From: Candidatus Minusculum obligatum
Lineage (GTDB): Bacteria > Patescibacteriota > Minisyncoccia > Phycocordibacterales > Phycocordibacteraceae
DNA length: 64,000 bases
NCBI GenBank assembly: GCA_002331145.1
Contig: DCYT01000002.1
Location: 23,337 to 87,336 of the forward strand
Direction of reading: 5' to 3'
Shown: piece by piece, positions 44,098 through 62,959 of the stretch
Numbering within the stretch: the first letter of the stretch is position 1
Layout: every line of letters begins with the position of its first letter
Translations under genes and position numbers: made by a program
The notes under the pieces: model-generated
Databases searched by the model: none
What the model saw: only the letters and a program-made list of their open reading frames with translations
Told to the model about the DNA's origin: nothing

Positions 44098-44382
44098 ATG
44101 TTCATATCTTCAAACATCGAACAGTCAGCAGAGCTTCTAAAACTTTTAGGAGACACTACTCGATTGAAAATCCTTAATCTTCTTTTCTCTGAAGATCGAG
44201 ATATGTGTGTAAATGAAATTGCCTACGAAGTAGGAGCAAGTCAGTCAGCAACAAGTCATCAGCTTTCCAAATTAGAGGCACTTAATATAGTGTCTTGTTT
44301 TCGTGATGGTCAAAAGGTTTGTTATGAATTAACTGACAAGCCAATTGTCGATTCTATTAGAAATATTTTGAAAGTTGTATGA
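44098..44382 (+). CDS. ArsR/SmtB-family transcriptional regulator
   Basis: ELLKLLGDTTRLKILNLLFSEDRDMCVNEIAYEVGASQSATSHQLSKL is an HTH. 94 aa. Heads a 5-gene operon linked by 4-nt overlaps. Confidence 0.85.
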   Translation: MFISSNIEQSAELLKLLGDTTRLKILNLLFSEDRDMCVNEIAYEVGASQSATSHQLSKLEALNIVSCFRDGQKVCYELTDKPIVDSIRNILKVV

Positions 44383-45374
44383 GAAACCATGCTCAAATAG
44401 TCGCAATAGTAATTCTCTTTATTGTTGCAATACTTGGATACTTTTTATTTATACAAAATAGAGGTCCAGAGTTTACATTCGAGGAAAACCAAACTGATAC
44501 AATTATAGATACTCATACTATGGAAGAAATAAATACAACAGATGGAACAAAACATTCAATTCCACTTAATGAAATCCTCTCAGGAGGACCACCAAAAGAT
44601 GGAATTCCTTCAATTGACGATCCAAAATTTCTTTCAGCTGAGGATGCAGGTTTCCTTGCAGGAAGTGATGTAGGGCTTGGACTTTCAATTGGTGGAGAGG
44701 ATAGATTTTATCCATATCAGATTTTGGTATGGCATGAGATTGTAAACGATACTGTTGGAGATACTCCAGTGCTTGTAACGTACTGTCCTCTTTGCGCTAC
44801 AGGGATTGTATTTGAGCGGAAAGTAAAGGGAGAAGAACAGGAATTTGGAGTGTCAGGAAGGCTTTGGCAGAGCAATCTTCTTATGTATAACCGAGGAGAG
44901 GAAGAATCTCTGTGGTCTCAGGTGCTTGGGGAGGCTGTTGTGGGAGAGCATACAGGAGAGAAGCTTGCTGTGGTTCGCTCAAGTACCGTTAGGTGGGAGG
45001 ATTGGAAGCGTGAGCATCCGGATACAAAAGTGCTTTCAAAAGACACTGGTGCTGTGAGAGTATATGGACAGGACCCATATGGTGATTATTACACCAATGA
45101 GTCAGTATCTTTTGGTGCGTCATTTAGTGACACAAGACTTCATCCAAAAGCATTTGTGCTTGGAATAGAGGTGCAAAATCAATTTAAGGCATATCATAAG
45201 GATGCTCTTCCTGAAGGAGAGACAAAAGACTCCTTTGCAGGAGTGGAGGTGGTGATTAGTAAGAATAGTATCGGAGAGGTATCTATGAGCGTTGCAGGAG
45301 AAGAACTTCCATATGTTGGAGGATTCTGGTTTAGCTGGCTTGCAGTACACGAAGAAACGGAATTATATAAATAG
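44379..45374 (+). CDS. DUF3179-family protein with an N-terminal TM anchor
   Basis: YPYQILVWHEIVNDTVGDTPVLVTYCPLC and GVSGRLWQSNLLMYNR blocks. ATGA overlap with arsR. Confidence 0.7.
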   Translation: MRNHAQIVAIVILFIVAILGYFLFIQNRGPEFTFEENQTDTIIDTHTMEEINTTDGTKHSIPLNEILSGGPPKDGIPSIDDPKFLSAEDAGFLAGSDVGLGLSIGGEDRFYPYQILVWHEIVNDTVGDTPVLVTYCPLCATGIVFERKVKGEEQEFGVSGRLWQSNLLMYNRGEEESLWSQVLGEAVVGEHTGEKLAVVRSSTVRWEDWKREHPDTKVLSKDTGAVRVYGQDPYGDYYTNESVSFGASFSDTRLHPKAFVLGIEVQNQFKAYHKDALPEGETKDSFAGVEVVISKNSIGEVSMSVAGEELPYVGGFWFSWLAVHEETELYK

Positions 45375-45375
45375 T

Positions 45376-46017
45376 ATGAATCAAGGAACAACAATAGCAG
45401 GAGCACTTATTGCAGGAGCAGTAATCTTTAGTAATGGAAATACACAAGTAGCAGGTGGAGGTAACGAGAATCAAAACCAAGAAGTAAATATCGCTGAAAT
45501 AACAGAGAGAGATCATCTTTTTGGAAATCCAAATGCGCCAATAAAGATTGTGGAGTATTCAGATTTTGAATGTCCTTTCTGTTCACGATTCCATCCAACT
45601 GTAGAGCAGGTAGTACAAGAGTTTGATGGAGAGGTTGCGTGGGTATATAGGCACTTCCCATTAAACATTCATGCAAATGCAGAACCTGCTGCAGAGGCAA
45701 GTGAGTGTGTAGCAGAGCTTGGAGGGAACGATGCTTTCTGGAGTTTTTCAGAAGAGCTGTTTAATAATCAGAGAGGTCTTGGAGAGTCTCTATATCTACA
45801 ACTTGCAGCAGCTGAAGGTGTGAGTGAGTCAGCAATGCAAAGTTGTCTTGATAGTGATCGACACCTAGCAAAGGTGCGAAGTGACATGCAGGACGCTATC
45901 AATGCAGGAGGTCGAGGAACACCATTCTCTGTTGTTATTGGAGAGAATGGAGATATGGTTCCATTCTCAGGAGCGCTTCCGTATGAGAGCGTAGTGAGCG
46001 TTATCAATTCTCTATGA
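45376..46017 (+). CDS. DsbA-like thiol:disulfide oxidoreductase (paralog 2)
   Basis: IVEYSDFECPFCSRFHPTV and VAWVYRHFPL. N-terminal TM helix. The ORF track start at 45292 overlaps the upstream gene; the ATG at 45376 is preferred. Confidence 0.85.
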   Translation: MNQGTTIAGALIAGAVIFSNGNTQVAGGGNENQNQEVNIAEITERDHLFGNPNAPIKIVEYSDFECPFCSRFHPTVEQVVQEFDGEVAWVYRHFPLNIHANAEPAAEASECVAELGGNDAFWSFSEELFNNQRGLGESLYLQLAAAEGVSESAMQSCLDSDRHLAKVRSDMQDAINAGGRGTPFSVVIGENGDMVPFSGALPYESVVSVINSL

Positions 46018-46517
46018 AAGTAACCCTAGGAATTGTCGTCGTTATCCTAATAGCTCTTGGAGCGATACTTTTCTTTGCGGGTAGTAGTGAGAATACAGTG
46101 CGTGCACAGGTGCCAGATTTGGCACTAATACAGCATGGAGGTGAAGAGGTTGCGTTAGCAGAGATTAAAGGATTTGCTGTGCTTAATAGTTGGGCAACAT
46201 GGTGTCCATTTTGTGTGCAGGAAGTTCCAGATTTTGTAGAGCTACAGAAAGAATTTGAAAACGTATCTGTGGTTCTTATAAATCGTAGTGAGGACGCTGC
46301 CAAAGCAGAAGCTTTCTTGGAGGGTAGAGGAGTGAATCTTTCAGATCTTATATTCCTTGAAGATCCTAAAGATTCCTTCTATAAGGGAATTGGAGGGTTC
46401 TCAATGCCTGAGACACTCTTTGTAAAAGATGGAGAAGTAATCTTCCATAAGAGAGGATTCATAAACTTGTCTGAAATGAGAGATTTAACCACTAGCTTAA
46501 TAAATGGAACACTATGA
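46014..46517 (+). CDS. TlpA/ResA-like thioredoxin-fold thiol-disulfide oxidoreductase
   Basis: WATWCPFC active site. N-terminal TM helix. ATGA overlap with the upstream dsbA. Confidence 0.8.
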   Translation: MKVTLGIVVVILIALGAILFFAGSSENTVRAQVPDLALIQHGGEEVALAEIKGFAVLNSWATWCPFCVQEVPDFVELQKEFENVSVVLINRSEDAAKAEAFLEGRGVNLSDLIFLEDPKDSFYKGIGGFSMPETLFVKDGEVIFHKRGFINLSEMRDLTTSLINGTL

Positions 46518-47284
46518 TTGAAGTAGAAATAGGATTCATCATCTCAGCATTCATTGCAGGCCTTGTTATGTTCTTGGCACCCTGCACGCTTCCCATTGTT
46601 CCTGCATACCTTGGGTTCATTAGTGGTGTATCTCTTAAAGATCTTGCAAAGCTTGAGGGAGAAGAGCGAAGGAGGGTTCAAAGAAAGATTTTCCTAAACG
46701 GCGTTGCATTCATTCTTGGATTCACACTCATCTTTGTGCTCTTTGGAACGCTCGCTGGGCTTTTGGGAGAAGCGCTGGCGCCGGTTCGAATATGGCTTGC
46801 TCGAATAGGCGGGGTACTTGTAATACTCTTTGGACTTTTCATGCTTGGAGTATTTGATCTTAAATTCCTGCAGACAGAGAAGAGACTAAAACTTCCTTCA
46901 TTTATGAAGATTGGGTCTCCAACAACTTCATTTGGTATAGGATCAGCATTTGCATTTGGGTGGACTCCTTGTGTTGGTCCAATTCTTGCAAGTATTCTTC
47001 TTCTTGCTTCAACTTCCTCAACAGCATTCCAGGGAGGATTCCTGCTCCTTATCTTTTCTCTAGGGCTTGCAGTACCGTTTCTTATTGTTGCTGCAGCAAC
47101 AAGCTATGCAAGCTCATTTATTGAGAGGGGAGGGAAATTCTTAAAGTATGTCTCTATTATCGGAGGAATATTCCTTCTAGGTCTTGGAACACTGCTCCTC
47201 ACAGACAATTTTGGTCTTCTTATCCAGTATGGGTATCAGTATTTTGATTTCCTAAACTATGAAGCGCTACTAGATTATCTGTAG
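46514..47284 (+). CDS. ccdA: Cytochrome c biogenesis/thiol-disulfide transporter CcdA (DsbD transmembrane domain)
   Basis: LAPCTLPIVPAYLGF (TM1 Cys) and GWTPCVGPILASIL (TM4 Cys). ATGA overlap with tlpA. Confidence 0.85.
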   Translation: MIEVEIGFIISAFIAGLVMFLAPCTLPIVPAYLGFISGVSLKDLAKLEGEERRRVQRKIFLNGVAFILGFTLIFVLFGTLAGLLGEALAPVRIWLARIGGVLVILFGLFMLGVFDLKFLQTEKRLKLPSFMKIGSPTTSFGIGSAFAFGWTPCVGPILASILLLASTSSTAFQGGFLLLIFSLGLAVPFLIVAAATSYASSFIERGGKFLKYVSIIGGIFLLGLGTLLLTDNFGLLIQYGYQYFDFLNYEALLDYL

Positions 47285-54092: not shown

Positions 54093-54170
54093 ATCAGAAA
54101 AGATTTACTTTAATAAAATAGGGGATAAAGAATTGACGTATAATACCCCCTAGGGGTATTATACCTTCTA

Positions 54171-54443
54171 ATGAAGAAAGATATCAAGAAGAGAGTTGTG
54201 CACAGGTTGAAAATCATCGAGGGGCAAGTGAAAGGTTTGCAAAGAATGGCAGAAGAAGAAGAGTATTGTATTAGCATCATTACTCAAGTTTCAGCAATGA
54301 GGCAAGCACTTTCTTCTGTAGAAGACTTAATGCTTGAAAATCACTTACTTACACATGTGGTGAGTCAAATGAAGAGCAAGAAAGGTCAAACGAAAGCAGT
54401 GGAGGAAATGTTGTCCATTTATAAACTTTCAAAGAAAAAGTAG
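54171..54443 (+). CDS. CsoR/RcnR/FrmR-family (DUF156) metal- or persulfide-sensing transcriptional repressor
   Basis: RLKIIEGQVKGLQRMAEEEEYCISIITQVSAMRQAL...LENHLLTHV: Cys in the YC motif, and an H-x-x-x-H where CsoR has H-x-x-x-C. Confidence 0.75.
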   Translation: MKKDIKKRVVHRLKIIEGQVKGLQRMAEEEEYCISIITQVSAMRQALSSVEDLMLENHLLTHVVSQMKSKKGQTKAVEEMLSIYKLSKKK

Positions 54444-54447
54444 ATAT

Positions 54448-55275
54448 ATGAATGCAAAAATACTTGGAATTGGAGCTTTTGTCGCACTACTCATTGCTGG
54501 CTTTGTGTTGGTGCAAGGTGGTGTTCCAGAATCTAAAATGGTTGAAGAGCACAGTGATTCTCTAGAATCATACGAAATGAGTCCTTCACAAGCTGTTAGC
54601 CGAATGCAAAGCAAAGATGATGTTGTGGTTCTTGATGTTCGAACAATTCAAGAATATGAAGAAATTCACCTTCAAAATGCTCTCTTGCTCCCCGTGCAGG
54701 AACTTTCTCAAGCTTCACTTGATGCGATTGGTCTTTCTGACAAAGATCAGGAAATAATTCTCTATTGCAGGAGTGGTGCTCGGAGTAAGACGGCTTTCGA
54801 TATCATGAATTCTCTTGGGTATACAAATATAAAAAGCGTTGCAGGAGGGATGATTCATTGGCAAGAAGATAATTACCCACTTACAGAGGTAGGAAAATTC
54901 AATGAATCAAAGAATATTCAGGAAAGTGACGAAAACACAATGGGTCCAAAGATAAGTGTCGATCGTAAGCTACATGATTTTGGAGAGATTCCTCAATTTG
55001 CAGGTGTAGTACAGACTATGTTTACTGTTACAAATTTGGGGACAGAAACTCTTACTGTTGGCGATATTACAACTAGTTGTAGCTGTACATCAGCAACACT
55101 GTCTTCATATTCTATTGGGGTGGGAGAGAGCGCTGAACTTACCGTTCTCTTTGACCCTGATTTACACGAAGAGCCAGAGGGTGTGTTTACACGAACGGTA
55201 TTTATCCCAAGTAATGACGTGAATACTCCAGAGGCAGAAGTTGCAGTACAAGTCGATATATTAGAAGGAGTTTAA
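54448..55275 (+). CDS. Membrane-anchored rhodanese (sulfurtransferase) domain fused to a DUF1573 Ig-like domain
   Basis: Rhodanese active-site loop ILYCRSGARSKTA. C-terminal DUF1573-like FGEIPQFAGVVQTMFTVTNLGTETLTVGDITTSCSCT. Confidence 0.7.
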   Translation: MNAKILGIGAFVALLIAGFVLVQGGVPESKMVEEHSDSLESYEMSPSQAVSRMQSKDDVVVLDVRTIQEYEEIHLQNALLLPVQELSQASLDAIGLSDKDQEIILYCRSGARSKTAFDIMNSLGYTNIKSVAGGMIHWQEDNYPLTEVGKFNESKNIQESDENTMGPKISVDRKLHDFGEIPQFAGVVQTMFTVTNLGTETLTVGDITTSCSCTSATLSSYSIGVGESAELTVLFDPDLHEEPEGVFTRTVFIPSNDVNTPEAEVAVQVDILEGV

Positions 55276-55286
55276 AATTAGATAAT

Positions 55287-55757
55287 ATGAATAATTACAT
55301 CGTAGGAGCACTAGTTATTGCAGGAGCACTTATTGCAGGAGCAATATTCTTTGTGGGTGGAGGTCCTGTTACAGAAAAGGTTGTGGCATCGGAGATTACT
55401 CTTGAGGCAAACGAGTATGATTTTGGTGACATTGATATTTTTGGTGGAAAGGTAAAAGCAACTTTCCCACTTACAAATACTGGAAGTGCTGATGTGACAG
55501 TGCTGTCTGGAGTTACAAGTTGTATCTGTACAGAAGGAGAAATAGATTCACTTTCCTTTGGCATGCATGGAAGTGATGGCGAGACAGTAATACCGGCAGG
55601 AGAGACAAGGGAGTTGGTTGCAATATATGATCCATTAGCACATGGTCCTGATGGAGTTGGGAAAATAAAGCGACAGTTGCAACTAAAGACAAACTCTTCG
55701 GTAACTGAGTACATCGACGTAAGTTTTACAGGAAATGTAGTAAAGAATGCTGAGTAA
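55287..55757 (+). CDS. DUF1573 Ig-like domain protein with a signal anchor
   Basis: YDFGDIDIFGGKVKATFPLTNTGSADVTVLSGVTSCICT: a paralogous fold to the C-terminus of the upstream protein. Confidence 0.6.
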   Translation: MNNYIVGALVIAGALIAGAIFFVGGGPVTEKVVASEITLEANEYDFGDIDIFGGKVKATFPLTNTGSADVTVLSGVTSCICTEGEIDSLSFGMHGSDGETVIPAGETRELVAIYDPLAHGPDGVGKIKRQLQLKTNSSVTEYIDVSFTGNVVKNAE

Positions 55758-55771
55758 TAAATAATATTCTC

Positions 55772-56725
55772 ATGGATAAAGTAAAAATAGCACTCGTAGG
55801 TATCGCATTCATTCTCTTGTCAATCATGCTTGTTGGAGGATTTAGTCTACTGACTTCTCCTACTATGGTTCCAGGATTTTCTCTGGCATTTTTGGCAGGG
55901 ATATCAATGATTGTGCTTCCGTGTACTTTTCCTCTTGTGTTTATCATTGTTCCTCTTGCGCTCTCAAAACAAAACGTGAAGAAAGGCATCATTATGGCAC
56001 TTCTTTTTGGTCTTGGTCTTACCGTTACATTTACGCTGTATGGTCTAGCACTCGGATGGCTGGGTGGTTTCGTTGGATTGTACAAAGTTGTCAGTGCAAT
56101 GCTTCTTATTGGAGGTATAGCAGCCCTCTTCTTTGGATTGGCAGAACTTGGTTTAGTGAACTTCTCTTTGCCATTTCGAAAAACTATTCTTCCACAGTCG
56201 CTCCAGCAAAAGAATGACTACATACGGAGCTTCTTTCTAGGCTTCTTCTTGGGAAACGCCGGAGTTGGTTGTCCAAATCCAGCCTTCTACATATTGTTTG
56301 GGTACGTTGCCACACTTGGAGATCCTATTACTGGGGCGTCTCTTGGAGCATTACATGGAATAGGAAGAATGGTTCCTCTTCTATTTCTAGTAGTTCTTGC
56401 AATTCTTGGAATAAATATGATGGAAAAGGTGAGTGCATATCAGGAAAGGGTAAAGCGTTGGGTTGCATGGTCGCTTGTTGTGCTTGGAGCATTCATACTT
56501 AACTATGGACTCTTTGGCATGGCATGGTTTGAAAAATCAGGTATTCATGAAGCATGGAATCAGTTCCTTCTTGCGGTAGTTCCAAAAATTGCAGAGTCAG
56601 CAGAGCTTGAGTCAGCTCTGCAGCTTCCGCAGGGTGTTGGTGGTATTATGCCCTGGATAGTTCTTGGTGCGGTTATAAGTGGGGTAATTGTATGGAGTGC
56701 GGTTAAGGCACGAAATAGTAAATAA
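55772..56725 (+). CDS. DsbD_2/CcdA-like thiol-disulfide transmembrane electron transporter (second copy in the window)
   Basis: Cys in TM1 (IVLPCTFPLV) and Cys in a later TM (GVGCPNPAFYIL). About 8 TM helices. Confidence 0.65.
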   Translation: MDKVKIALVGIAFILLSIMLVGGFSLLTSPTMVPGFSLAFLAGISMIVLPCTFPLVFIIVPLALSKQNVKKGIIMALLFGLGLTVTFTLYGLALGWLGGFVGLYKVVSAMLLIGGIAALFFGLAELGLVNFSLPFRKTILPQSLQQKNDYIRSFFLGFFLGNAGVGCPNPAFYILFGYVATLGDPITGASLGALHGIGRMVPLLFLVVLAILGINMMEKVSAYQERVKRWVAWSLVVLGAFILNYGLFGMAWFEKSGIHEAWNQFLLAVVPKIAESAELESALQLPQGVGGIMPWIVLGAVISGVIVWSAVKARNSK

Positions 56726-56727
56726 TT

Positions 56728-56880
56728 ATGACTAACTTTATACAAATAGCATATGCACATGGAGGAGAGGAAGTTGAAGCTGTAACAGCTCTTGATTTCT
56801 CAGGGCCACTTATTGCTCTGGGAATGATTGTTGCAGCAATTATTATTGCAAAAATTATTTCTAAGAAAAAAATAACATGA
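56728..56880 (+). CDS. Small membrane peptide (50 aa) whose stop overlaps the start of the Grx-like gene
   Basis: MTNFIQIAYAHGGEEVEAVTALDFSGPLIALGMIVAAIIIAKIISKKKIT. Not in the ORF track (under 60 aa). TGA/ATG overlap at 56877. Confidence 0.35.
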   Translation: MTNFIQIAYAHGGEEVEAVTALDFSGPLIALGMIVAAIIIAKIISKKKIT

Positions 56881-57134
56881 TTAAAGTAACACTTGTCCGC
56901 CCAGAAGGATGTCATCATTGTAAGGAGGTTAAAAACACACTTGAGGGAATGAGAGATGAATTTCCTGATATTTCAATTGAAGAAATTGATATGGTTACAC
57001 CTGAAGGAAGGGAGCTTGTTCAAAAATATCAGATGCTATCAAGCCCAGGGATTTTAATTAATGATGAATTCTTTGCTTTTGGCGGCGCTACTGAGGAACA
57101 GTTTAGAAAAAAGTTTAACGAAATTAATGGCTAG
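56877..57134 (+). CDS. Glutaredoxin/NrdH-like small thioredoxin-fold protein (CxxC = CHHC)
   Basis: VTLVRPEGCHHCKEVKNTLEGM. 85 aa. Confidence 0.6.
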   Translation: MIKVTLVRPEGCHHCKEVKNTLEGMRDEFPDISIEEIDMVTPEGRELVQKYQMLSSPGILINDEFFAFGGATEEQFRKKFNEING

Positions 57135-57155
57135 GCCTGGTAAAGAATAAAGAAA

Positions 57156-57869
57156 ATGTTGTTGGGAATTAAAAGTAAAAAAGTTGCACTCTTGCGCCAC
57201 TTAGCAATGGCTATTGTTGGGGGATTGCTTGTGTATTTGGTTTGGTCACTTAATGGTACGTGGAGTCCAGATATGCGGTTGTGGAAAGCATTTGGTGGAG
57301 CATCTTTTTTCCTCCTATGGTTTGCTGTTGTTATTGGGCCGTTAGCAAAGCTTCTTCCATCATTTAACTTAATGCTCTCGTATCGTCGCGAGGCAGGAGT
57401 TTGGTTTTTTATCATTGCATTGGTGCACGGATATCTCATTCTTGATGGCTGGGTGCGGTGGAATGTATGGGAATTTTTCGGCTATCAATACTTTACTGAA
57501 GTAGAGATGTATTTAAGAGTTGAGCCTGGGTTTGGATTAGCAAGTTTACTTGGACTTGTTGCTCTCATGTTTGCTCTTGCGCTTGCTGCAACATCTTTTG
57601 ATTGGGCAGTTAATCTTCTAGGTATTACTTCTTGGAAATGGTTGCATATGTTTGCGTACGTTGTGTTTTATTTGGCAGCAATGCATGTTGTATATTTTGC
57701 CTTTATTCATTACACACCTTCGTTTAATAGGCTTGCTATGGGGCTTCCAACAGATTATCCAGATAACCCATTGAAATATTATTATCTCAACGCACTTCTG
57801 AGTGTGTTTGTTTTGCAGACATCTGCTTTTATTGCAACGGTACGTAAAAATAAAAGAGCAAGCTGGTAG
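57156..57869 (+). CDS. Ferric-reductase-type (FRD/MsrQ-like) di-haem transmembrane protein
   Basis: His pair spaced 13 apart on one helix (LHMFAYVVFYLAAMH). His in an earlier helix (IIALVHGYLIL). Six TM helices. Confidence 0.65.
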   Translation: MLLGIKSKKVALLRHLAMAIVGGLLVYLVWSLNGTWSPDMRLWKAFGGASFFLLWFAVVIGPLAKLLPSFNLMLSYRREAGVWFFIIALVHGYLILDGWVRWNVWEFFGYQYFTEVEMYLRVEPGFGLASLLGLVALMFALALAATSFDWAVNLLGITSWKWLHMFAYVVFYLAAMHVVYFAFIHYTPSFNRLAMGLPTDYPDNPLKYYYLNALLSVFVLQTSAFIATVRKNKRASW

Positions 57870-57872
57870 CGT

Positions 57873-58553
57873 ATGGTATTTGAAACAATAATTAAAGGAC
57901 GTAAAAAAGTTGCAAAAGGTACTTGTGAAATAACTTTCAAAAGACCCGAGAAATTTGTATTTAAAGCAGGGCAATATATACAAATTGCCATACCAGAATT
58001 ACTTAGTCCGGATTTAAGGGGTAATTCACGGCTATTTTCTGTCACTTCGTCTCCGGACGATTTAGAAAATATCCGCGTAGTTTTTAGAGTCTCTACTAGT
58101 GGATTCAAACAAACATTGGTGAGTATGCCAGTTGGTGCAACAGTGCAAATTGAACAGGCTGCTGGCAGTTTTGTTTTACCGCAATCACCAAAACAGCAAC
58201 AAATTTTTGTTGCTGGCGGTGTTGGCATCTCTCCATTTATGAGCTACTTCAATCAAGAGAATACTCCATTTGAGAAAGGGCAGACTACTCTTTTTTATGG
58301 AAATCAAAACGAAGAGAGTGCCGCATATGTTACTGAGCTCCGCGCTTTTGCAAAGAGGTATCAATCTTTTTCACTTCAAGAGCTGTATGAAAGACCTTCC
58401 TCTGAATTCTTTAGGAGAAATGCGCAAATGTATAAAGATGCTACGTGGTGGGTGGTTGGGCCACCGGCAATGGTTGGAGTTGTTGTAAACGGACTTCAAT
58501 TAGGGGGTGTGGACCAAAATAATATTATAACTGAACCCTTTGAAGGATATTAG
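57873..58553 (+). CDS. FNR-fold FAD/NAD(P)H oxidoreductase (Fre-like flavin reductase), encoded separately from the FRD membrane domain
   Basis: RLFSVTSSP (RxYS FAD motif), IFVAGGVGISP (GGxGxxP NAD(P)H motif) and a C-terminal WWVVGPPAMV. Confidence 0.7.
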   Translation: MVFETIIKGRKKVAKGTCEITFKRPEKFVFKAGQYIQIAIPELLSPDLRGNSRLFSVTSSPDDLENIRVVFRVSTSGFKQTLVSMPVGATVQIEQAAGSFVLPQSPKQQQIFVAGGVGISPFMSYFNQENTPFEKGQTTLFYGNQNEESAAYVTELRAFAKRYQSFSLQELYERPSSEFFRRNAQMYKDATWWVVGPPAMVGVVVNGLQLGGVDQNNIITEPFEGY

Positions 58554-58557
58554 ACAT

Positions 58558-59328
58558 ATGAAAAATACTTTAGGATTAATTGTTTTTATTCTCGTACTTG
58601 TTGCACTAACTGCAATATTTTTTCTGAATGGTAGAAATACAGAAGTAACAATCGATGAAATATTTTCTGTATCTGCTCAGGATATTAAAGATCAAATTAC
58701 CATTGATCGTGTTGTTATGGACCAGCCAGGATTTATTGTGGCACGAGAAATTATAGATGGAAAACCGGGGCAGATAGTGGAAGTAAGTAAGTATTTAAAG
58801 GCGGGCGAAAATGTTGATGTTGTTATAGGTCTTGCACAACCATTAATTGAGGGGGTTGGTGTGAGCAGCGATCAATTTGATCAAGAAATTGTTGTTGCTG
58901 TGTATTATGATGATGGAGATAAGGGCTTTAATCCGTCTCTTGATTCTCTTGCATATCGTGAAGGGGAAGTGCTCGCACGGTTTGTCAAAACAGGAGTAAT
59001 GGCGCCTGAGTCAGCAGTGGTGCCAAACACTAAGGGTGAAAATATTGATGTTGCTCAAATAGTTACCTATACAGACAGTGGGTTTATTCCTCGGAACAGT
59101 GAAATTTCTTCTGGTGATACTGTTCGATTTATTAATAAGAGCAGTAATCAAATGTGGGTTGCCTCAAATGGGCATCCGGCACATATGATACTTCCAACAT
59201 TTGATCAGTTTAGTGCTTCTTCATATGGTGAAAGTTATGAATACACTTTTGAAAAAGAGGGGGTGTGGGAGTATCACGATCACATAAATGCTAGCCAGGT
59301 TGGTGTCATGTTAGTTCATTCAAATTAA
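58558..59328 (+). CDS. Membrane-anchored protein with a C-terminal cupredoxin-like domain that lacks the canonical type-1 copper cysteine (HDH in place of C..H)
   Basis: GDTVRFINKSSNQMWVASNGHPAHM...YEYTFEKEGVWEYHDHINASQVGVMLV follows the cupredoxin pattern (N.S....H....YEY.C..H..M.G...V) with Cys replaced by Asp. Confidence 0.55.
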   Translation: MKNTLGLIVFILVLVALTAIFFLNGRNTEVTIDEIFSVSAQDIKDQITIDRVVMDQPGFIVAREIIDGKPGQIVEVSKYLKAGENVDVVIGLAQPLIEGVGVSSDQFDQEIVVAVYYDDGDKGFNPSLDSLAYREGEVLARFVKTGVMAPESAVVPNTKGENIDVAQIVTYTDSGFIPRNSEISSGDTVRFINKSSNQMWVASNGHPAHMILPTFDQFSASSYGESYEYTFEKEGVWEYHDHINASQVGVMLVHSN

Positions 59329-59333
59329 ATTAC

Positions 59334-59804
59334 ATGCAAAATACAATAAATATTTGGGGAGTGTCTGCCATTATTGGCATAACGGTTTTGTTACTTGGTG
59401 GCGTTGCATTGTTGCCAAAAGCTCCTACAGGAGAGGGAGATGCTGTTGCTGCGGGACTCCATTGGCATCCTGAATTGCAAATTTTTGTTGATGAAGAAAA
59501 GCAGCAAATTCCAGCAAACATAAGGCTTGGTGGTGGCGGACATCAGCCAATACATACACACACAGAAGATGTTGAGGAAGGAGTACTTCACTTTGAGTTT
59601 GGAGGAGTTGCCTATACTGGAGATCTTCGTTTAGGAAACTTCTTCCGTATTTGGGGAAATAAAGATATGCAAACAGCGTTTGGCGTACTTGAACGAATGA
59701 TAGTAAATGGAGAAGAAAACAGTGAATTTGGAGAATATATTGTACAAAGTGAAGACAAAATAGAGCTCCACTACAACACTTTATTGCAGGGAGAGGTTAT
59801 GTAG
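59334..59804 (+). CDS. His-rich hypothetical exported protein (HWHP...HQPIHTHTED), a candidate metal binder
   Basis: Signal anchor, then LHWHPELQIFVD...GGGGHQPIHTHTEDVEEGVLHFEF. Confidence 0.5.
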   Translation: MQNTINIWGVSAIIGITVLLLGGVALLPKAPTGEGDAVAAGLHWHPELQIFVDEEKQQIPANIRLGGGGHQPIHTHTEDVEEGVLHFEFGGVAYTGDLRLGNFFRIWGNKDMQTAFGVLERMIVNGEENSEFGEYIVQSEDKIELHYNTLLQGEVM

Positions 59805-59847
59805 GCATGTTATTATTACTTAAATAAAAAAATAAAATATTGTTACT

Positions 59848-60573
59848 ATGGAAGAAAAAAAGAAAGAAGGGATGAATTTGGCAGTTCCGGGTGCGATTAT
59901 GTTTGCTGGAATACTCATTGCTGGCGCATTAGTGTTCTCCTCACTGCAAAGCAGTGGGGGACAGCAAGTAGCTGAAGAGGCTCCACAAGACGCAGGGTCT
60001 CTTGACGCAATGGATCCAGTGTCAGAAAAAGATCACGTTCGAGGGAATCCAAATGCTCCAGTTATGATTGTTGAGTATTCAGACTATGAATGTCCTTTCT
60101 GTAAGCGCTTCCATGAGACCATGAACCAGGTTATGGATACATATGGTGCTGAAGGAAAAGTTGCGTGGGTATATCGGCACTTTCCTCTTGACCAACTCCA
60201 TCCAGTAAAAGCTCGGCAAGAAGCTGCCGCAGCAGAATGTGTTGCTGAAATTGGCGGAGATGACATGTTTTGGAGGTTCTCAGATAGATTCTTTGAGCTT
60301 ACGCCATCTAACAATCAAACCGACCTCACCGTGGTTCTTCCACAAATTTATTCTGAACTAGGTCTTTCGCAAGCAAAGGTGAATGAGTGTGTTGCAAGTG
60401 GGAGGTATGATGATCATATTCAAGCTGAGTTTGAAAATGCTGTGGCAACAGGAGGTCGTGGTACGCCGTGGAGCATTCTTATAGCTGCAGACGGTACAAA
60501 GTACCCACTGTCTGGCGCACAACCTCTTAGTGCTATAAATCAGCTTATTGAACTTGGATTAGGAAACAACTAG
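59848..60573 (+). CDS. DsbA-like thiol:disulfide oxidoreductase (paralog 3)
   Basis: IVEYSDYECPFCKRFHETM and VAWVYRHFPL. N-terminal TM helix. About 50% identical by eye to paralogs 1 and 2. Confidence 0.85.
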   Translation: MEEKKKEGMNLAVPGAIMFAGILIAGALVFSSLQSSGGQQVAEEAPQDAGSLDAMDPVSEKDHVRGNPNAPVMIVEYSDYECPFCKRFHETMNQVMDTYGAEGKVAWVYRHFPLDQLHPVKARQEAAAAECVAEIGGDDMFWRFSDRFFELTPSNNQTDLTVVLPQIYSELGLSQAKVNECVASGRYDDHIQAEFENAVATGGRGTPWSILIAADGTKYPLSGAQPLSAINQLIELGLGNN

Positions 60574-60577
60574 TCTT

Positions 60578-61099
60578 ATGGAGAAGCAAAGAATATTCGC
60601 ATATATTCTTATTGGAGCCATCATTTCTTTCATTGTTTTTTCTCTTGCTGTATTTCTTCCAAACCTTACTCTTGTATGGACGATAGCAAATTCTCCTGCT
60701 TTGTTAGGTGAAAAATTTGCACTGCTTGTGAGTTTATATGGTGCTATTGGAACAAACTTTACATTTCTTGCAGCGGGGTACACCATTTTGATGTCTCTCT
60801 TGTTTGGCTTAAATGTCACACTGCTGATTTATCTTGTGCGTAGCAGGAGTGTTGGTGCTGTTGGTAAAAATGCCGCAGTTAGTATAGGGGGTCTTATAAG
60901 TGGAATACTGGGTGTTGGGTGTGCTGCTTGTGGAACATTTATCCTCTCAGCGGTACTTGGACTTGTAGGTGCAGCCGGGTTACTTACGCTTCTACCGCTT
61001 GGTGGAGAAGAGTTTGGAATAGTGGGTGTTCTTTTGCTAGCATATACAACATATGCACTGGTTAAAAAAATTCGTGAACCAAATGTTTGCAGCGCTTAG
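60578..61099 (+). CDS. Hypothetical polytopic membrane protein with an intramembrane GCAACG (CxxC) motif
   Basis: GILGVGCAACGTFILSAVLG. 4-5 TM helices. Confidence 0.5.
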   Translation: MEKQRIFAYILIGAIISFIVFSLAVFLPNLTLVWTIANSPALLGEKFALLVSLYGAIGTNFTFLAAGYTILMSLLFGLNVTLLIYLVRSRSVGAVGKNAAVSIGGLISGILGVGCAACGTFILSAVLGLVGAAGLLTLLPLGGEEFGIVGVLLLAYTTYALVKKIREPNVCSA

Positions 61100-61108
61100 A
61101 TAGCTAGT

Positions 61109-61570
61109 ATGGATACACTGATTATATTTCTTGGAAGCTATTTGCATTTCTTCATTATTGCAACAGCTTTATTAAGTGTTATTTTTGCATCTTCAAAAAT
61201 ACGTCTAGAATACATCTCTTTCTTAATTTTTGTTGGACTGCTTGCTTATTTGTTAGGAGAGTTAGTCGGTATGGTTGTATATAATCCACGACCCTTTGTT
61301 ATCTTAGAGGTTGTTCCACTTATTCCTCATGATCCAACAAACGGATTTCCTTCCACGCACGCACTTGTTTCTATAAGCATTGCTTTTGCTGTGTTTGTGT
61401 TTAATAAAAAACTTGGATTTGTACTTTTCTTGCTGGCAATCCTTGTTGGGGCTGGCCGTGTTTTTGCACAAATACACAGTGTTGAAGACGTTCTTGGGAG
61501 CATTGTTGTGGCGCTTGTGGCAGTATGTGTGGGGTTATTTGTCAAAAAGGTTTTTAAAAACCAATCCTAA
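61109..61570 (+). CDS. PAP2-superfamily membrane phosphatase
   Basis: PSTHALVSISIAF (PSGH-like) and AGRVFAQIHSVEDVLGS (SRxxxxxHxxxD) motifs. Confidence 0.65.
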   Translation: MDTLIIFLGSYLHFFIIATALLSVIFASSKIRLEYISFLIFVGLLAYLLGELVGMVVYNPRPFVILEVVPLIPHDPTNGFPSTHALVSISIAFAVFVFNKKLGFVLFLLAILVGAGRVFAQIHSVEDVLGSIVVALVAVCVGLFVKKVFKNQS

Positions 61571-61631
61571 TTTTAATGACATAACATTAATTAATGTGTA
61601 AGATTAACAAATAATTGACTAACAAAAATTT

Positions 61632-62372
61632 ATGGAAAAAAATACAGAGGAAGAATATAAAAAAAATCGAATGCAGACCAAACCTAAATCAAAAGCAGTT
61701 ACGTGGAGTCTAGCTGCCGTGGTTGTTCTTACAGGACTTATATGGGGTCTATCCTCTGGTTCAACAGATAATTCAACAGAAAAAAACTCGATAGCAAATA
61801 CGCTTACGGCAATTGTTGATGATGATTATATAGTTGGTCCAGCAAACGCACCTGTAACACTCATAGAGTACCTCGACTTTGAATGTGAAGCATGTGGTGC
61901 ATACTTTCCGCTAATAAAACAATTAGAGAAAGAGTTTCCAGATGATCTCCGGGTGGTGATGCGGTACTTCCCTCTACCAGGTCACAGAAATGGACTTACG
62001 GCAGCACTTGCCGTTGAAGCGGCAGCACAACAAGGAAAATACAACGAGATGCACGATCTATTATTTGAAGAACAGGAAAATTGGGGTGAGCGATCTGCAC
62101 CGGATCCTTTAATTTTCGAGGAATATGCAAAACAACTTGGGCTTGACACGGAACGATTCAAACAAGATGTATCTTTGCAATCTGTTAAGGATCGTATACA
62201 GCGTGATGTAGATTCAGGAAGAAAACTTGGCAATACTGGAACACCCTCATTCTTCCTAAATGGAAAAAAAATCAACAACCCGCGTAGCTATGAAACATTT
62301 CGACAATTAATTCTAGATGAAATTGAAATTGTTGGAGTGCAACATTCAACTTCTACCCAAATGCAGAATTAG
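61632..62372 (+). CDS. DsbA-like thioredoxin-fold oxidoreductase (divergent fourth paralog; CxxC = CEAC)
   Basis: LIEYLDFECEACGAYFPLI and VVMRYFPL. N-terminal TM helix. Confidence 0.75.
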   Translation: MEKNTEEEYKKNRMQTKPKSKAVTWSLAAVVVLTGLIWGLSSGSTDNSTEKNSIANTLTAIVDDDYIVGPANAPVTLIEYLDFECEACGAYFPLIKQLEKEFPDDLRVVMRYFPLPGHRNGLTAALAVEAAAQQGKYNEMHDLLFEEQENWGERSAPDPLIFEEYAKQLGLDTERFKQDVSLQSVKDRIQRDVDSGRKLGNTGTPSFFLNGKKINNPRSYETFRQLILDEIEIVGVQHSTSTQMQN

Positions 62373-62383
62373 TTAGCCATTGT

Positions 62384-62959
62384 ATGTCATTAGATCAATT
62401 CTCAACTTTGCTCACGCTTGGTTCTTCAGTACTTTTTGTAGGTCTAGCATTTATTGTGCTTGCTACTTGCACTTCAGAGAAGTTGCGTGAACATATGGCG
62501 CGTTTGGGGTACTTTTCTTACCTCTGGGTAATTGCTGGGGTATCGGCATTCTCTATAGCTAGCGCGTTTATTTATCAATTGGTTTATCTAACTCCTGTAT
62601 GTGAGCTATGTTGGATACAGCGTATTTTTTTCTACCCAATAGTTATTATAATGCTTGTCGCCATATGGCATCGTACGCGTGAGGCACACATCACCATAGC
62701 CATACTCTCTGCGCTTGGCCTGTTAGTGGCTATATATCATTACTATTATCAATTTCAGAAACTTGTTCTTGGAAATGTGCTGGCACTACCGTGTTCTTAC
62801 GGCGGACTTTTGCCAGCTTGTACGGATTCATCAATTCTTATATTCGGCTTTGTAACGATCCCTTTTATGGGCATACTTATGTTTGGAAGTTTTCTTTTAT
62901 TGGCCGGACTAGCTGAATTTGCTAAGAGACGCATGGATAGAATAATTAATAACAAATAA
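62384..62959 (+). CDS. Disulfide bond formation protein B (DsbB/BdbC-like)
   Basis: First loop Cys pair CELCWIQR. Second pair LPCSYGGLLPAC. Four TM helices. Confidence 0.7.
   Translation: MSLDQFSTLLTLGSSVLFVGLAFIVLATCTSEKLREHMARLGYFSYLWVIAGVSAFSIASAFIYQLVYLTPVCELCWIQRIFFYPIVIIMLVAIWHRTREAHITIAILSALGLLVAIYHYYYQFQKLVLGNVLALPCSYGGLLPACTDSSILIFGFVTIPFMGILMFGSFLLLAGLAEFAKRRMDRIINNK

Follow-up and report, generated by a model that had tools for sequence, protein, structure and literature searches.

Cupredoxin-fold proteins that lack the copper-ligating cysteine and accessory proteins encoded in copper islands are both kinds that are already known. There is precedent for a non-blue copper site within a cupredoxin fold: FtrB, a Cys-less and redox-active cupredoxin, holds Cu2+ at a non-classical site (PMC11966278). 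Among prokaryotic proteins of the FRD type, MsrQ is the sole one with a known physiological function, working with Fre to pass electrons to the periplasmic protein MsrP, and the physiological acceptors of bacterial NOX enzymes are unknown and may differ from O2 (PMC11031084). Eukaryotic Fre and STEAP proteins reduce Cu(II) at the cell surface (PMC11031084, PMC7558416), and the only specific cupric reductase described in bacteria is the Fe-S protein CcoG (PMC7558416). Here we analyze a 64,000-nucleotide stretch of DNA, referred to throughout as the window, from Candidatus Minusculum obligatum, a member of the Patescibacteriota (contig DCYT01000002.1, positions 23,337 to 87,336). Our subjects are two adjacent genes, which we term A and B, encoding a Cys-less cupredoxin-fold protein and a protein with clustered histidines; they directly follow a pair of genes for an MsrQ-like haem protein and an FNR-family flavoprotein. 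One reading, which we regard as evenly poised between right and wrong, is that A and B belong to a copper-stress regulon as non-blue copper proteins located outside the cytoplasm, and that A is probably the acceptor for the NOX-like pair. In the literature searched, we found no description of the A family with its histidine cluster, of the B family, or of a pairing between a cupredoxin and a NOX-like system.

Gene A (58558..59328, + strand) encodes 256 amino acids plus a stop. We place its start at the ATG at 58558, which is backed by the N-termini of its homologues, with a TTG at 58540 as the alternative. In the predicted structural model, the product is an extracytoplasmic, membrane-anchored and outward-facing protein, in which a beta-rich DUF7282 domain is followed by a C-terminal domain of cupredoxin fold. 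The chain begins with a hydrophobic helix (residues 1–25, 58558..58632, +; helix 2–24 in the AF2 model) that would serve as an anchor or signal sequence. The DUF7282 domain (residues 37–122, 58666..58923, +) is supported by the strands of the model and by PF23951 at E 4.7e-10, its 40.1 bits lying above the Pfam gathering cut-off of 27; a literature search on DUF7282 returned nothing. The cupredoxin-fold domain then occupies residues about 165–254 (59050..59319, +). A sister locus in “Patescibacteria group bacterium UBA2103” (CP174360.1) shares 97% protein identity across the A/B locus.

A preliminary description of this DNA had proposed a cupredoxin fold for the C-terminal part of the product, with the copper-ligating cysteine replaced and a blue copper site thereby excluded, and both proposals have held up. 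The open reading frames and motif strings that it quoted are all present in the translations. When the C-terminal 90 residues are searched alone, the cupredoxin models of Pfam respond below threshold (PF00127 E 0.036, PF13473 E 0.22). On A itself, PF00127 scores 14.9 bits against a cut-off of 21.2, Cupredoxin_1 (PF13473) 12 bits against 27, and TIGR02656 17.8 bits against 87.85, while the plastocyanin and pseudoazurin models of NCBIfam reach E 0.003, likewise sub-threshold. Some relatives do carry a precomputed PF13473 match. Among sequences in the PDB, A alone retrieves plastocyanin 1bxu (E 0.002) and cupredoxin 5fc9 (E 0.003). The similarity becomes significant once the whole family is used as a profile, which matches plastocyanin at 2.4e-6 and the cupredoxin domain of NirK at 1.6e-6, and the predicted model of A has the Greek-key beta-sandwich of a cupredoxin.

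The type-1 site has been lost from this fold in its entirety. When A is aligned without gaps to 5fc9 and to the domain of NirK, whose ligand loops are as long as that of A, the first His corresponds to M199, the Cys to D241, the second His to N244, and the axial Met to Q247. The gapped alignment to plastocyanin differs from these in placing the second His at H242 and the Cys within an insertion. Protein A contains no cysteine at all, and the type-1 ligand series His...Cys-x(n)-His-x(m)-Met is missing. Since there is no cysteine in A and no alignment provides a thiolate, a type-1 (blue) site is impossible. The relevant segment of A, residues 237–253, reads WEYHDHINASQVGVMLV and includes H240-D241-H242 (59275..59283, +), with D241 at the position of the type-1 Cys according to the alignments. 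A sequencing error that masks a Cys, one of the circumstances under which the preliminary description would have been overturned, can be ruled out, because the HDH triplet (HNH in relatives) is conserved throughout the A family.

What A has gained is a set of conserved histidines elsewhere on the domain. Besides H240 and H242, these include the motif H206-P-A-H209 that follows strand 4 (59173..59184, +), in which H209 is invariant and H206 nearly so. Among 28 full-length relatives of A with 34–93% identity, H206, H209, H240, H242, N193, S195, W200, A202 and S203 are all invariant, and M199, P207, Y239 and D241 are conserved in at least 90%. A set of 36 wider relatives shares the motif MWVAS-x-HPxH-x2-LPxFDQ ... 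GxWxYH(N/D)H, again with H209, H240 and H242 invariant and H206 conserved in at least 90%. Across the family, the residue between H240 and H242 is either Asp or Asn, the latter being the commoner of the two in the wider set. We had considered D241 as a natural ligand resembling that of C112D azurin, an idea now weakened by the Asn that most relatives carry at this position. When the domain alone was used for a profile search, at least 1512 proteins were retrieved at E <= 1e-5; almost without exception they are N-terminally anchored, single-domain proteins of 120–180 amino acids from Patescibacteria. The Cys-less cupredoxin is thus a trait of a family with more than 1500 members across the Patescibacteria and not an oddity of one genome. 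A non-canonical metal site, as suggested in the preliminary description, would be the natural reading of the four conserved histidines of A.

In an extended chain, the side chains of H240 and H242 face the same way, away from the type-1 pocket. Multicopper oxidases (H-C-H, W-Y-H-x-H) and copper nitrite reductase (H-C) reach their inter-domain type-2/type-3 coppers likewise. The profile of the A family aligns its YHDH with WYHPH in domain 1 and HCH in domain 3 of the multicopper oxidase encoded beside an A orthologue (locus L005). When A is aligned by hand and without gaps to poplar plastocyanin, H206–H209 presumably fall on the “acidic patch” 42–47 around Tyr83, and H240 presumably takes the place of Tyr83. 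It is therefore plausible that all four histidines lie on one surface. Methionine also features in this family: some A orthologues (for example P0023 and P0025) have a Met-rich linker before the cupredoxin domain, AIAMMEMGKNMPGMAMPME, which the A protein of the window lacks, and a Met-rich stretch, MMGGMSGGMGGHRMPDGSMMGGMM, is found as well in the three-domain multicopper oxidase at L005 6427–7995.

These features set A apart from each of the described groups to which it might be compared. Relative to the type-1 cupredoxins, such as plastocyanin, amicyanin and Nitrosopumilus Nmar_1307 (PDB 5fc9), A lacks the His, Cys, His and Met ligands, its newly conserved histidines sit outside the type-1 pocket, and it is fused to DUF7282, membrane-anchored, and encoded in a context of copper stress rather than respiration or photosynthesis. 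With multicopper oxidases, A shares at motif level the two histidines that flank the Cys-equivalent position, H240-x-H242, as in WYHPH and HCH of the L2 and L4 motifs, and like domain 1 of these enzymes it has no type-1 site. However, A is not a multicopper oxidase: it consists of one cupredoxin domain with one HxH, one HxxH and no type-1 site, it offers 3–4 histidines where the oxidases have 8, it has no partner domain in its chain, and the spacing of its HPxH differs from the HxH of motif L1. The “HC” of the type-2 site in copper nitrite reductase similarly places a His beside the Cys-equivalent position. The Cup-II cupredoxins, FtrB and the N-terminal domain of EfeO, have no motif in common with A, and FtrB uses D118/H121 in contrast to the His cluster of A; furthermore, neither FtrA/C/D nor EfeU/B of the FtrABCD and EfeUOB iron-uptake systems is encoded in the operon of the window or in 57 orthologous loci. 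Among copper resistance proteins, CopI retains a Cys-containing copper site as well as His/Met-rich regions and CupA binds Cu(I) through Cys/Met, and both lack the HPxH...YH(D/N)H motif, the DUF7282 domain and the NOX-like neighbor.

This neighbor is a pair of genes located immediately upstream of A. The first encodes a 237-aa, MsrQ-like haem membrane protein of the FRD type (57156..57869, +; PF01794, 32.7 bits against 28), in which the presumptive haem-ligating residues H91 and H164 are invariant. Its best NCBIfam match is MsrQ at E 9.5e-9, the score of 35 being below the cut-off of 130. The second encodes a 226-aa FNR-family FAD/NAD(P)H flavoprotein (57873..58553, +; PF00175, E 3.8e-9) that is nearest to the dehydrogenase domain of bacterial NOX, with Streptococcus pneumoniae NOX (SpNOX, 8qq5/8qq7) as the best match at E 3e-13. 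The translation contains RLFS and GGVGISP, the FAD and NAD(P)H motifs are kept, and R53, S59 and G115-G116-x-G118-x-x-P121 are conserved. Judged by their sequences, the two proteins resemble a NOX divided over two chains, much as in Fre-MsrQ of E. coli. By analogy with MsrP-MsrQ-Fre, an FRD haem protein together with an FNR-family flavoprotein would export electrons to an acceptor outside the membrane, and the gene for the putative acceptor is found directly upstream of the FRD gene in A-FRD arrangements, as is msrP with msrQ. The window pair is distinct from the MsrP system in that its neighbor is a cupredoxin-like His-cluster protein rather than a molybdoenzyme and its FRD protein falls below the MsrQ cut-off.

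The association between A and this pair was examined from both sides. Starting from FRD (alignment A5), we collected 80 metagenome loci, comprising 48 with closer and 32 with more distant FRD proteins. A is present in 33 of the 48 closer-FRD loci, mostly as A-FRD-FNR, and in a single locus of the more distant ones (L151; 1/32), so the link to A is specific to one FRD subfamily and strong within that subfamily. At L102 and L157, a 130-aa cupredoxin stands beside FRD in the place of A. An earlier view, based upon the first 13 loci, that FRD and FNR are not conserved beside A was overturned by two larger censuses.

Starting from A, we fetched 80 genome loci carrying the family, 57 with a full-length A and 23 with single-domain relatives, and screened them with the proteins of the window as well as CopB, the multicopper oxidase and other proteins of the first loci, counting matches within 10 kb of A. 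The most frequent companions of full-length A are a DsbA-like protein (about 38/57 loci), a 173-aa protein with a GCAxCG motif (35/57), a P-type ATPase of the CopB kind (32/57) and CsoR (31/57), followed by B (25/57), a multicopper oxidase (23/57) and FRD (19/57). The neighboring ATPases have a CPH motif and His-rich N-termini, which identifies them as the CopB type. The gene immediately upstream of A is B in 11 loci, that of a 130-aa Cys-containing cupredoxin in 10, the multicopper oxidase gene in 8 and CsoR in 6; immediately downstream is FRD in 15 loci, which yields an A-FRD-FNR triad, compared with the order FRD-FNR-A in the window. In about 25 loci, a TACCC-N3-7-GGGTA box is located 25–51 nt upstream of the CsoR orthologue. 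A and B thus form part of a conserved gene set with a CsoR-type operator, CopB and a multicopper oxidase at its core.

Several other members of these neighborhoods deserve mention. The 130-aa protein is anchored and Cupredoxin_1-like, with one Cys and two His (SHG...VCGG...NHGE), and occurs at L001 7612–8004, L016–L021 and L094–L133, where it alternates with B directly upstream of A. A stand-alone 166-aa DUF7282 protein is encoded at L009 7549–8049, directly after a B relative and a DUF305 protein, so that DUF7282 is linked to the copper gene set even where no cupredoxin domain accompanies it. Regulators of the x-Cys-His-His type (L001 9674–9943, L003 9986–10255, L007 7635–7907) are accompanied by a CsoR-type palindromic operator and stand beside CPH-type CopB. 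In UBA2163, genes for a second CsoR-family regulator, this one CstR-like, and then for a rhodanese and a metallo-beta-lactamase-fold protein lie beside the copper island (L001 13458–15002), an arrangement resembling the persulfide-sensing cst operon.

Gene B (59334..59804, +; 156 aa plus a stop) encodes a membrane-anchored protein of an unclassified family, whose confident structural model predicts a beta-grasp fold. The preliminary description had called this product an exported, His-rich protein. Its clustered histidines are indeed present, HWHPELQ and HQPIHTHTED both occurring in the translation, yet “His-rich” understates the case, since B represents a large conserved family with an invariant, ligand-like cluster of five His and one Glu: H43-W-H45, H74-T-H76 and H86-x-E88 (59460..59597, +). 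The only Pfam match is a sub-threshold one to Lactamase_B (17.8 bits against 22.7), NCBIfam yielded no match, and the family profile found no relative among PDB sequences. Fold comparison gave weak beta-grasp matches only, the closest being PDB 3u7z, a “putative metal binding protein RUMGNA_00854”, Mth1743, and MoaD/ThiS/ubiquitin-like proteins. These share a very weak 9–15% identity with B and no sequence relationship; no counterpart of the HWH/HTH/HxE cluster could be identified. Close relatives of B number 74, and an exhaustive profile search retrieved 2449 cluster representatives at E <= 1e-3. Some of these relatives are fused to canonical type-1 cupredoxins (P0259, P0268), to CuA/COX2-like cupredoxins (P0240, P0313) or to rhodanese (P0034–37, P0241, P0265), and one has an N-terminal heavy-metal-binding domain (P0252); a search for names given to such fusion proteins found none. 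We also considered that A and B might form a split multicopper oxidase that jointly supplies the four His motifs. For B this was rejected, since the fold modeled for it is a beta-grasp instead of a cupredoxin; for A the idea is retained at motif level only, the alignment of L1 being unreliable.

In the window, A and B are the ninth and tenth genes of a 15-gene array on the + strand (54171 to 62959, gaps <=61 nt). The array begins with a CsoR-like regulator, a rhodanese+DUF1573 protein, a DUF1573 protein, a DsbD/CcdA-like membrane protein, a 50-aa open reading frame and a thioredoxin-like protein; after FRD, FNR, A and B, it continues with a DsbA-like protein, the 173-aa membrane protein, a PAP2 phosphatase, a second DsbA-like protein and DsbB. 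Divergently upstream are a DUF302 gene and a gene for a small membrane protein. None of the large open reading frames tested in the window encodes a copper ATPase. The regulator (54171..54443, +; 90 aa) is a CsoR/RcnR-family metalloregulator and lies eight genes upstream of A on the same strand, with gaps of <=21 nt between neighbors. Its position upstream of A and B had been pointed out in the preliminary description, and both this linkage and the operator prove to be conserved across genomes. Its similarity to NCBIfam RicR (E 1.2e-16) is sub-cut-off, at 61 bits against 175. The perfect palindrome ATACCCCCTAGGGGTAT is situated 27 nt upstream of the regulator, and we take it to resemble known CsoR operators. 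This putative operator, an inverted repeat of ATACCCC-CTA-GGGGTAT at 54142..54160 with an exact core at 54144–54158, is a GC-rich palindrome at the operon promoter and overlaps the -10 element of the best sigma-70-like match in the region, TTGACG-18-TATTAT (54133..54162, +), a consensus match only (10/12), in the divergent intergenic region upstream of the regulator.

The DsbA-like thiol oxidoreductase (59848..60573, +; PF13462, E 1.4e-22) is, by synteny, a conserved neighbor of B and A. The 173-aa polytopic membrane protein (60578..61099, +) has no Pfam or NCBIfam match; its G114-C115-A116-x-C118-G119 motif, within a membrane helix, and its C-terminal C171 are invariant. As its gene always comes directly after the DsbA-like gene, in the 35 loci mentioned above, it may be an undescribed membrane redox partner of this DsbA, analogous to DsbB/VKOR. 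The exported rhodanese+DUF1573 fusion (54448–55275, +) and the DUF1573 protein (55287–55757, +) contain the CxC motifs TSCSCTS and TSCICTE. Given that rhodanese is also fused to B relatives in sister genomes, these genes suggest that the copper-stress operon has a sulfur or thiol branch. A second envelope thiol-redox cluster is found at 44098–47284 (+), consisting of an ArsR-type regulator, DUF3179, a DsbA-like protein, a TlpA-like thioredoxin and CcdA. For a genome of 0.58 Mb, the share that this cluster and the 54–63 kb operon together assign to redox control outside the cytoplasm is unusually large.

Based upon these features, a working mechanism can be proposed. Firstly, the His cluster of A would bind copper at an exposed, type-2-like (non-blue) site, by analogy located on the side of the barrel that oxidases and nitrite reductases use for their inter-domain copper sites. 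Secondly, A would act as the extracytoplasmic acceptor of the NOX-like pair, occupying beside FRD the place that MsrP occupies beside MsrQ, with electrons passing from NAD(P)H via FAD and haem b to Cu(II)-A and yielding Cu(I). The role of A as an electron recipient draws upon analogy with MsrP-MsrQ and with the eukaryotic Fre/STEAP cupric reductases (PMC7558416). Thirdly, B, or elsewhere the 130-aa Cys-containing cupredoxin, would bind copper through its own His cluster and serve as a hand-off or buffer partner for the oxidase and the envelope. In sum, the module would govern, under copper stress, how copper outside the membrane is bound and in which redox state it is kept. The preliminary description had raised a non-redox role as an alternative to a non-canonical metal site; it is not favored, as the split NOX-like/MsrQ-like pair (57156, 57873), which presumably exports electrons, adjoins A here and in many other genomes.

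A number of observations weigh against this mechanism. About two thirds of A loci are missing the FRD/FNR pair. The 23 single-domain loci have essentially none of the copper neighbors, and three single-domain members that were inspected reside in housekeeping-gene neighborhoods. To judge from its sequence, the regulator does not have the Cu(I) fingerprint x-C-H-C; here and in its orthologues it is x-C33-H58-H62, and we take C-H-H to be the RcnR-like ligand set and C-H-C that of CsoR. Within A, the Asn at the center of the HxH in most single-domain relatives implies that D241 is probably not an essential ligand. The HPxH lies within a few residues of the oxidase L1 HxH, and the HMMER and hhalign registers disagree here, with an hhalign probability of 16%. 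The proposed proximity of H206/H209 to H240 rests on homology to the plastocyanin Tyr83/acidic-patch face, and loop 208–213 of the model has a pLDDT below 50. Finally, it is not obvious how converting extracellular Cu(II) into Cu(I), the more toxic form, would help a cell to resist copper.

A more specific version of the mechanism would go further, and we put it forward tentatively as a possibility of rather low likelihood. According to this version, A, the MsrQ-like haem protein and the SpNOX-like flavoprotein would constitute a three-component transmembrane chain, in which the copper center of a cupredoxin devoid of its type-1 site is the physiological acceptor. The acceptor would be an interface His site in the style of the oxidases and nitrite reductases, built on a single cupredoxin domain and perhaps completed by dimerization or by B.

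Of the explanations that compete with a copper-binding acceptor, the one that survives best is that A and B merely buffer or chaperone copper without redox function, like CopC, CusF, CopI and CupA, and that the NOX-like pair serves O2 or thiol systems and is simply co-regulated. This could account for the many A loci devoid of FRD/FNR and for the co-occurrence of A and B with DsbA, the multicopper oxidase and CopB where no reductase is encoded, and the Met-rich linkers of some A orthologues, typical of Cu(I)-binding resistance proteins, would fit it equally well, as would the B relative fused to a heavy-metal-binding domain. It is more difficult to reconcile with the tight A-FRD-FNR adjacency that recurs from both search directions, and with L102 and L157, in which the substitution of another cupredoxin for A indicates that the partner of the haem protein is of the cupredoxin type. 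We therefore judge pure buffering unlikely, if still a serious contender.

Less probable still, in our estimation, is that the conserved histidines bind Zn, Ni or Co, or that the domain is a metal-free structural or interaction module comparable to SufI/FtsP, CyoA or the ephrins. All-His sites are not specific to copper, single-domain relatives are found among housekeeping genes, and the C-H-H set of the regulator is like that of the Ni/Co sensor RcnR. On the other hand, A adjoins a multicopper oxidase and CPH-type, His-rich CopB ATPases, the operator is CsoR-type, A orthologues have Met-rich linkers, and B is fused to canonical copper cupredoxins, while the invariance of four histidines at 35–50% overall identity argues against a metal-free role. 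Lastly, there is next to no prospect that A is an ordinary blue-copper carrier (“plastocyanin”, pcy) to NirK or an oxidase, even though the JGI and NCBI pipelines name several relatives “plastocyanin” or “cupredoxin domain-containing protein” and a recent survey treats a single-cupredoxin “pcy” of Patescibacteria, possibly of the A family, as a carrier to NirK (PMC12931201), because A has no Cys, keeps none of the four type-1 ligand positions, which refutes a type-1 site, and scores far below the cut-offs of the Pfam and NCBIfam plastocyanin models.

With a copper-binding acceptor as the favored role for A, several consequences follow for the Patescibacteria and for FRD-type systems more generally. 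Patescibacterial proteins of this type number more than 1500 and are often labeled “plastocyanin” or “cupredoxin” by annotation pipelines, and such labels feed metabolic reconstructions that include electron carriers to NirK, in organisms without respiratory chains. As A-type proteins cannot hold a blue copper center, these NirK-carrier schemes need to be rechecked. The comparison also delineates a set of copper-stress genes conserved among ultra-small episymbiotic bacteria and brings to light two uncharacterized families, that of B and that of the putative GCAxCG membrane partner of DsbA. A single cupredoxin domain with an oxidase-like HxH and no type-1 site bears upon the evolution of multicopper oxidases; if its interface His site is indeed completed by dimerization or by B, A would be a living analogue of the postulated single-domain ancestor of these enzymes and could even reduce O2. 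For bacterial NOX-like and FRD systems, for which only MsrP is known, the cupredoxin-like neighbor provides a concrete candidate acceptor, and the module is a candidate surface cupric reductase of the Fre/STEAP type, an enzyme class that bacteria are thought to lack. Should the three-component chain prove true, prokaryotes would have their first surface copper reductase of the FRD type (Fre/STEAP-like), and A would be the first partner besides MsrP to be assigned to a bacterial NOX-like system.

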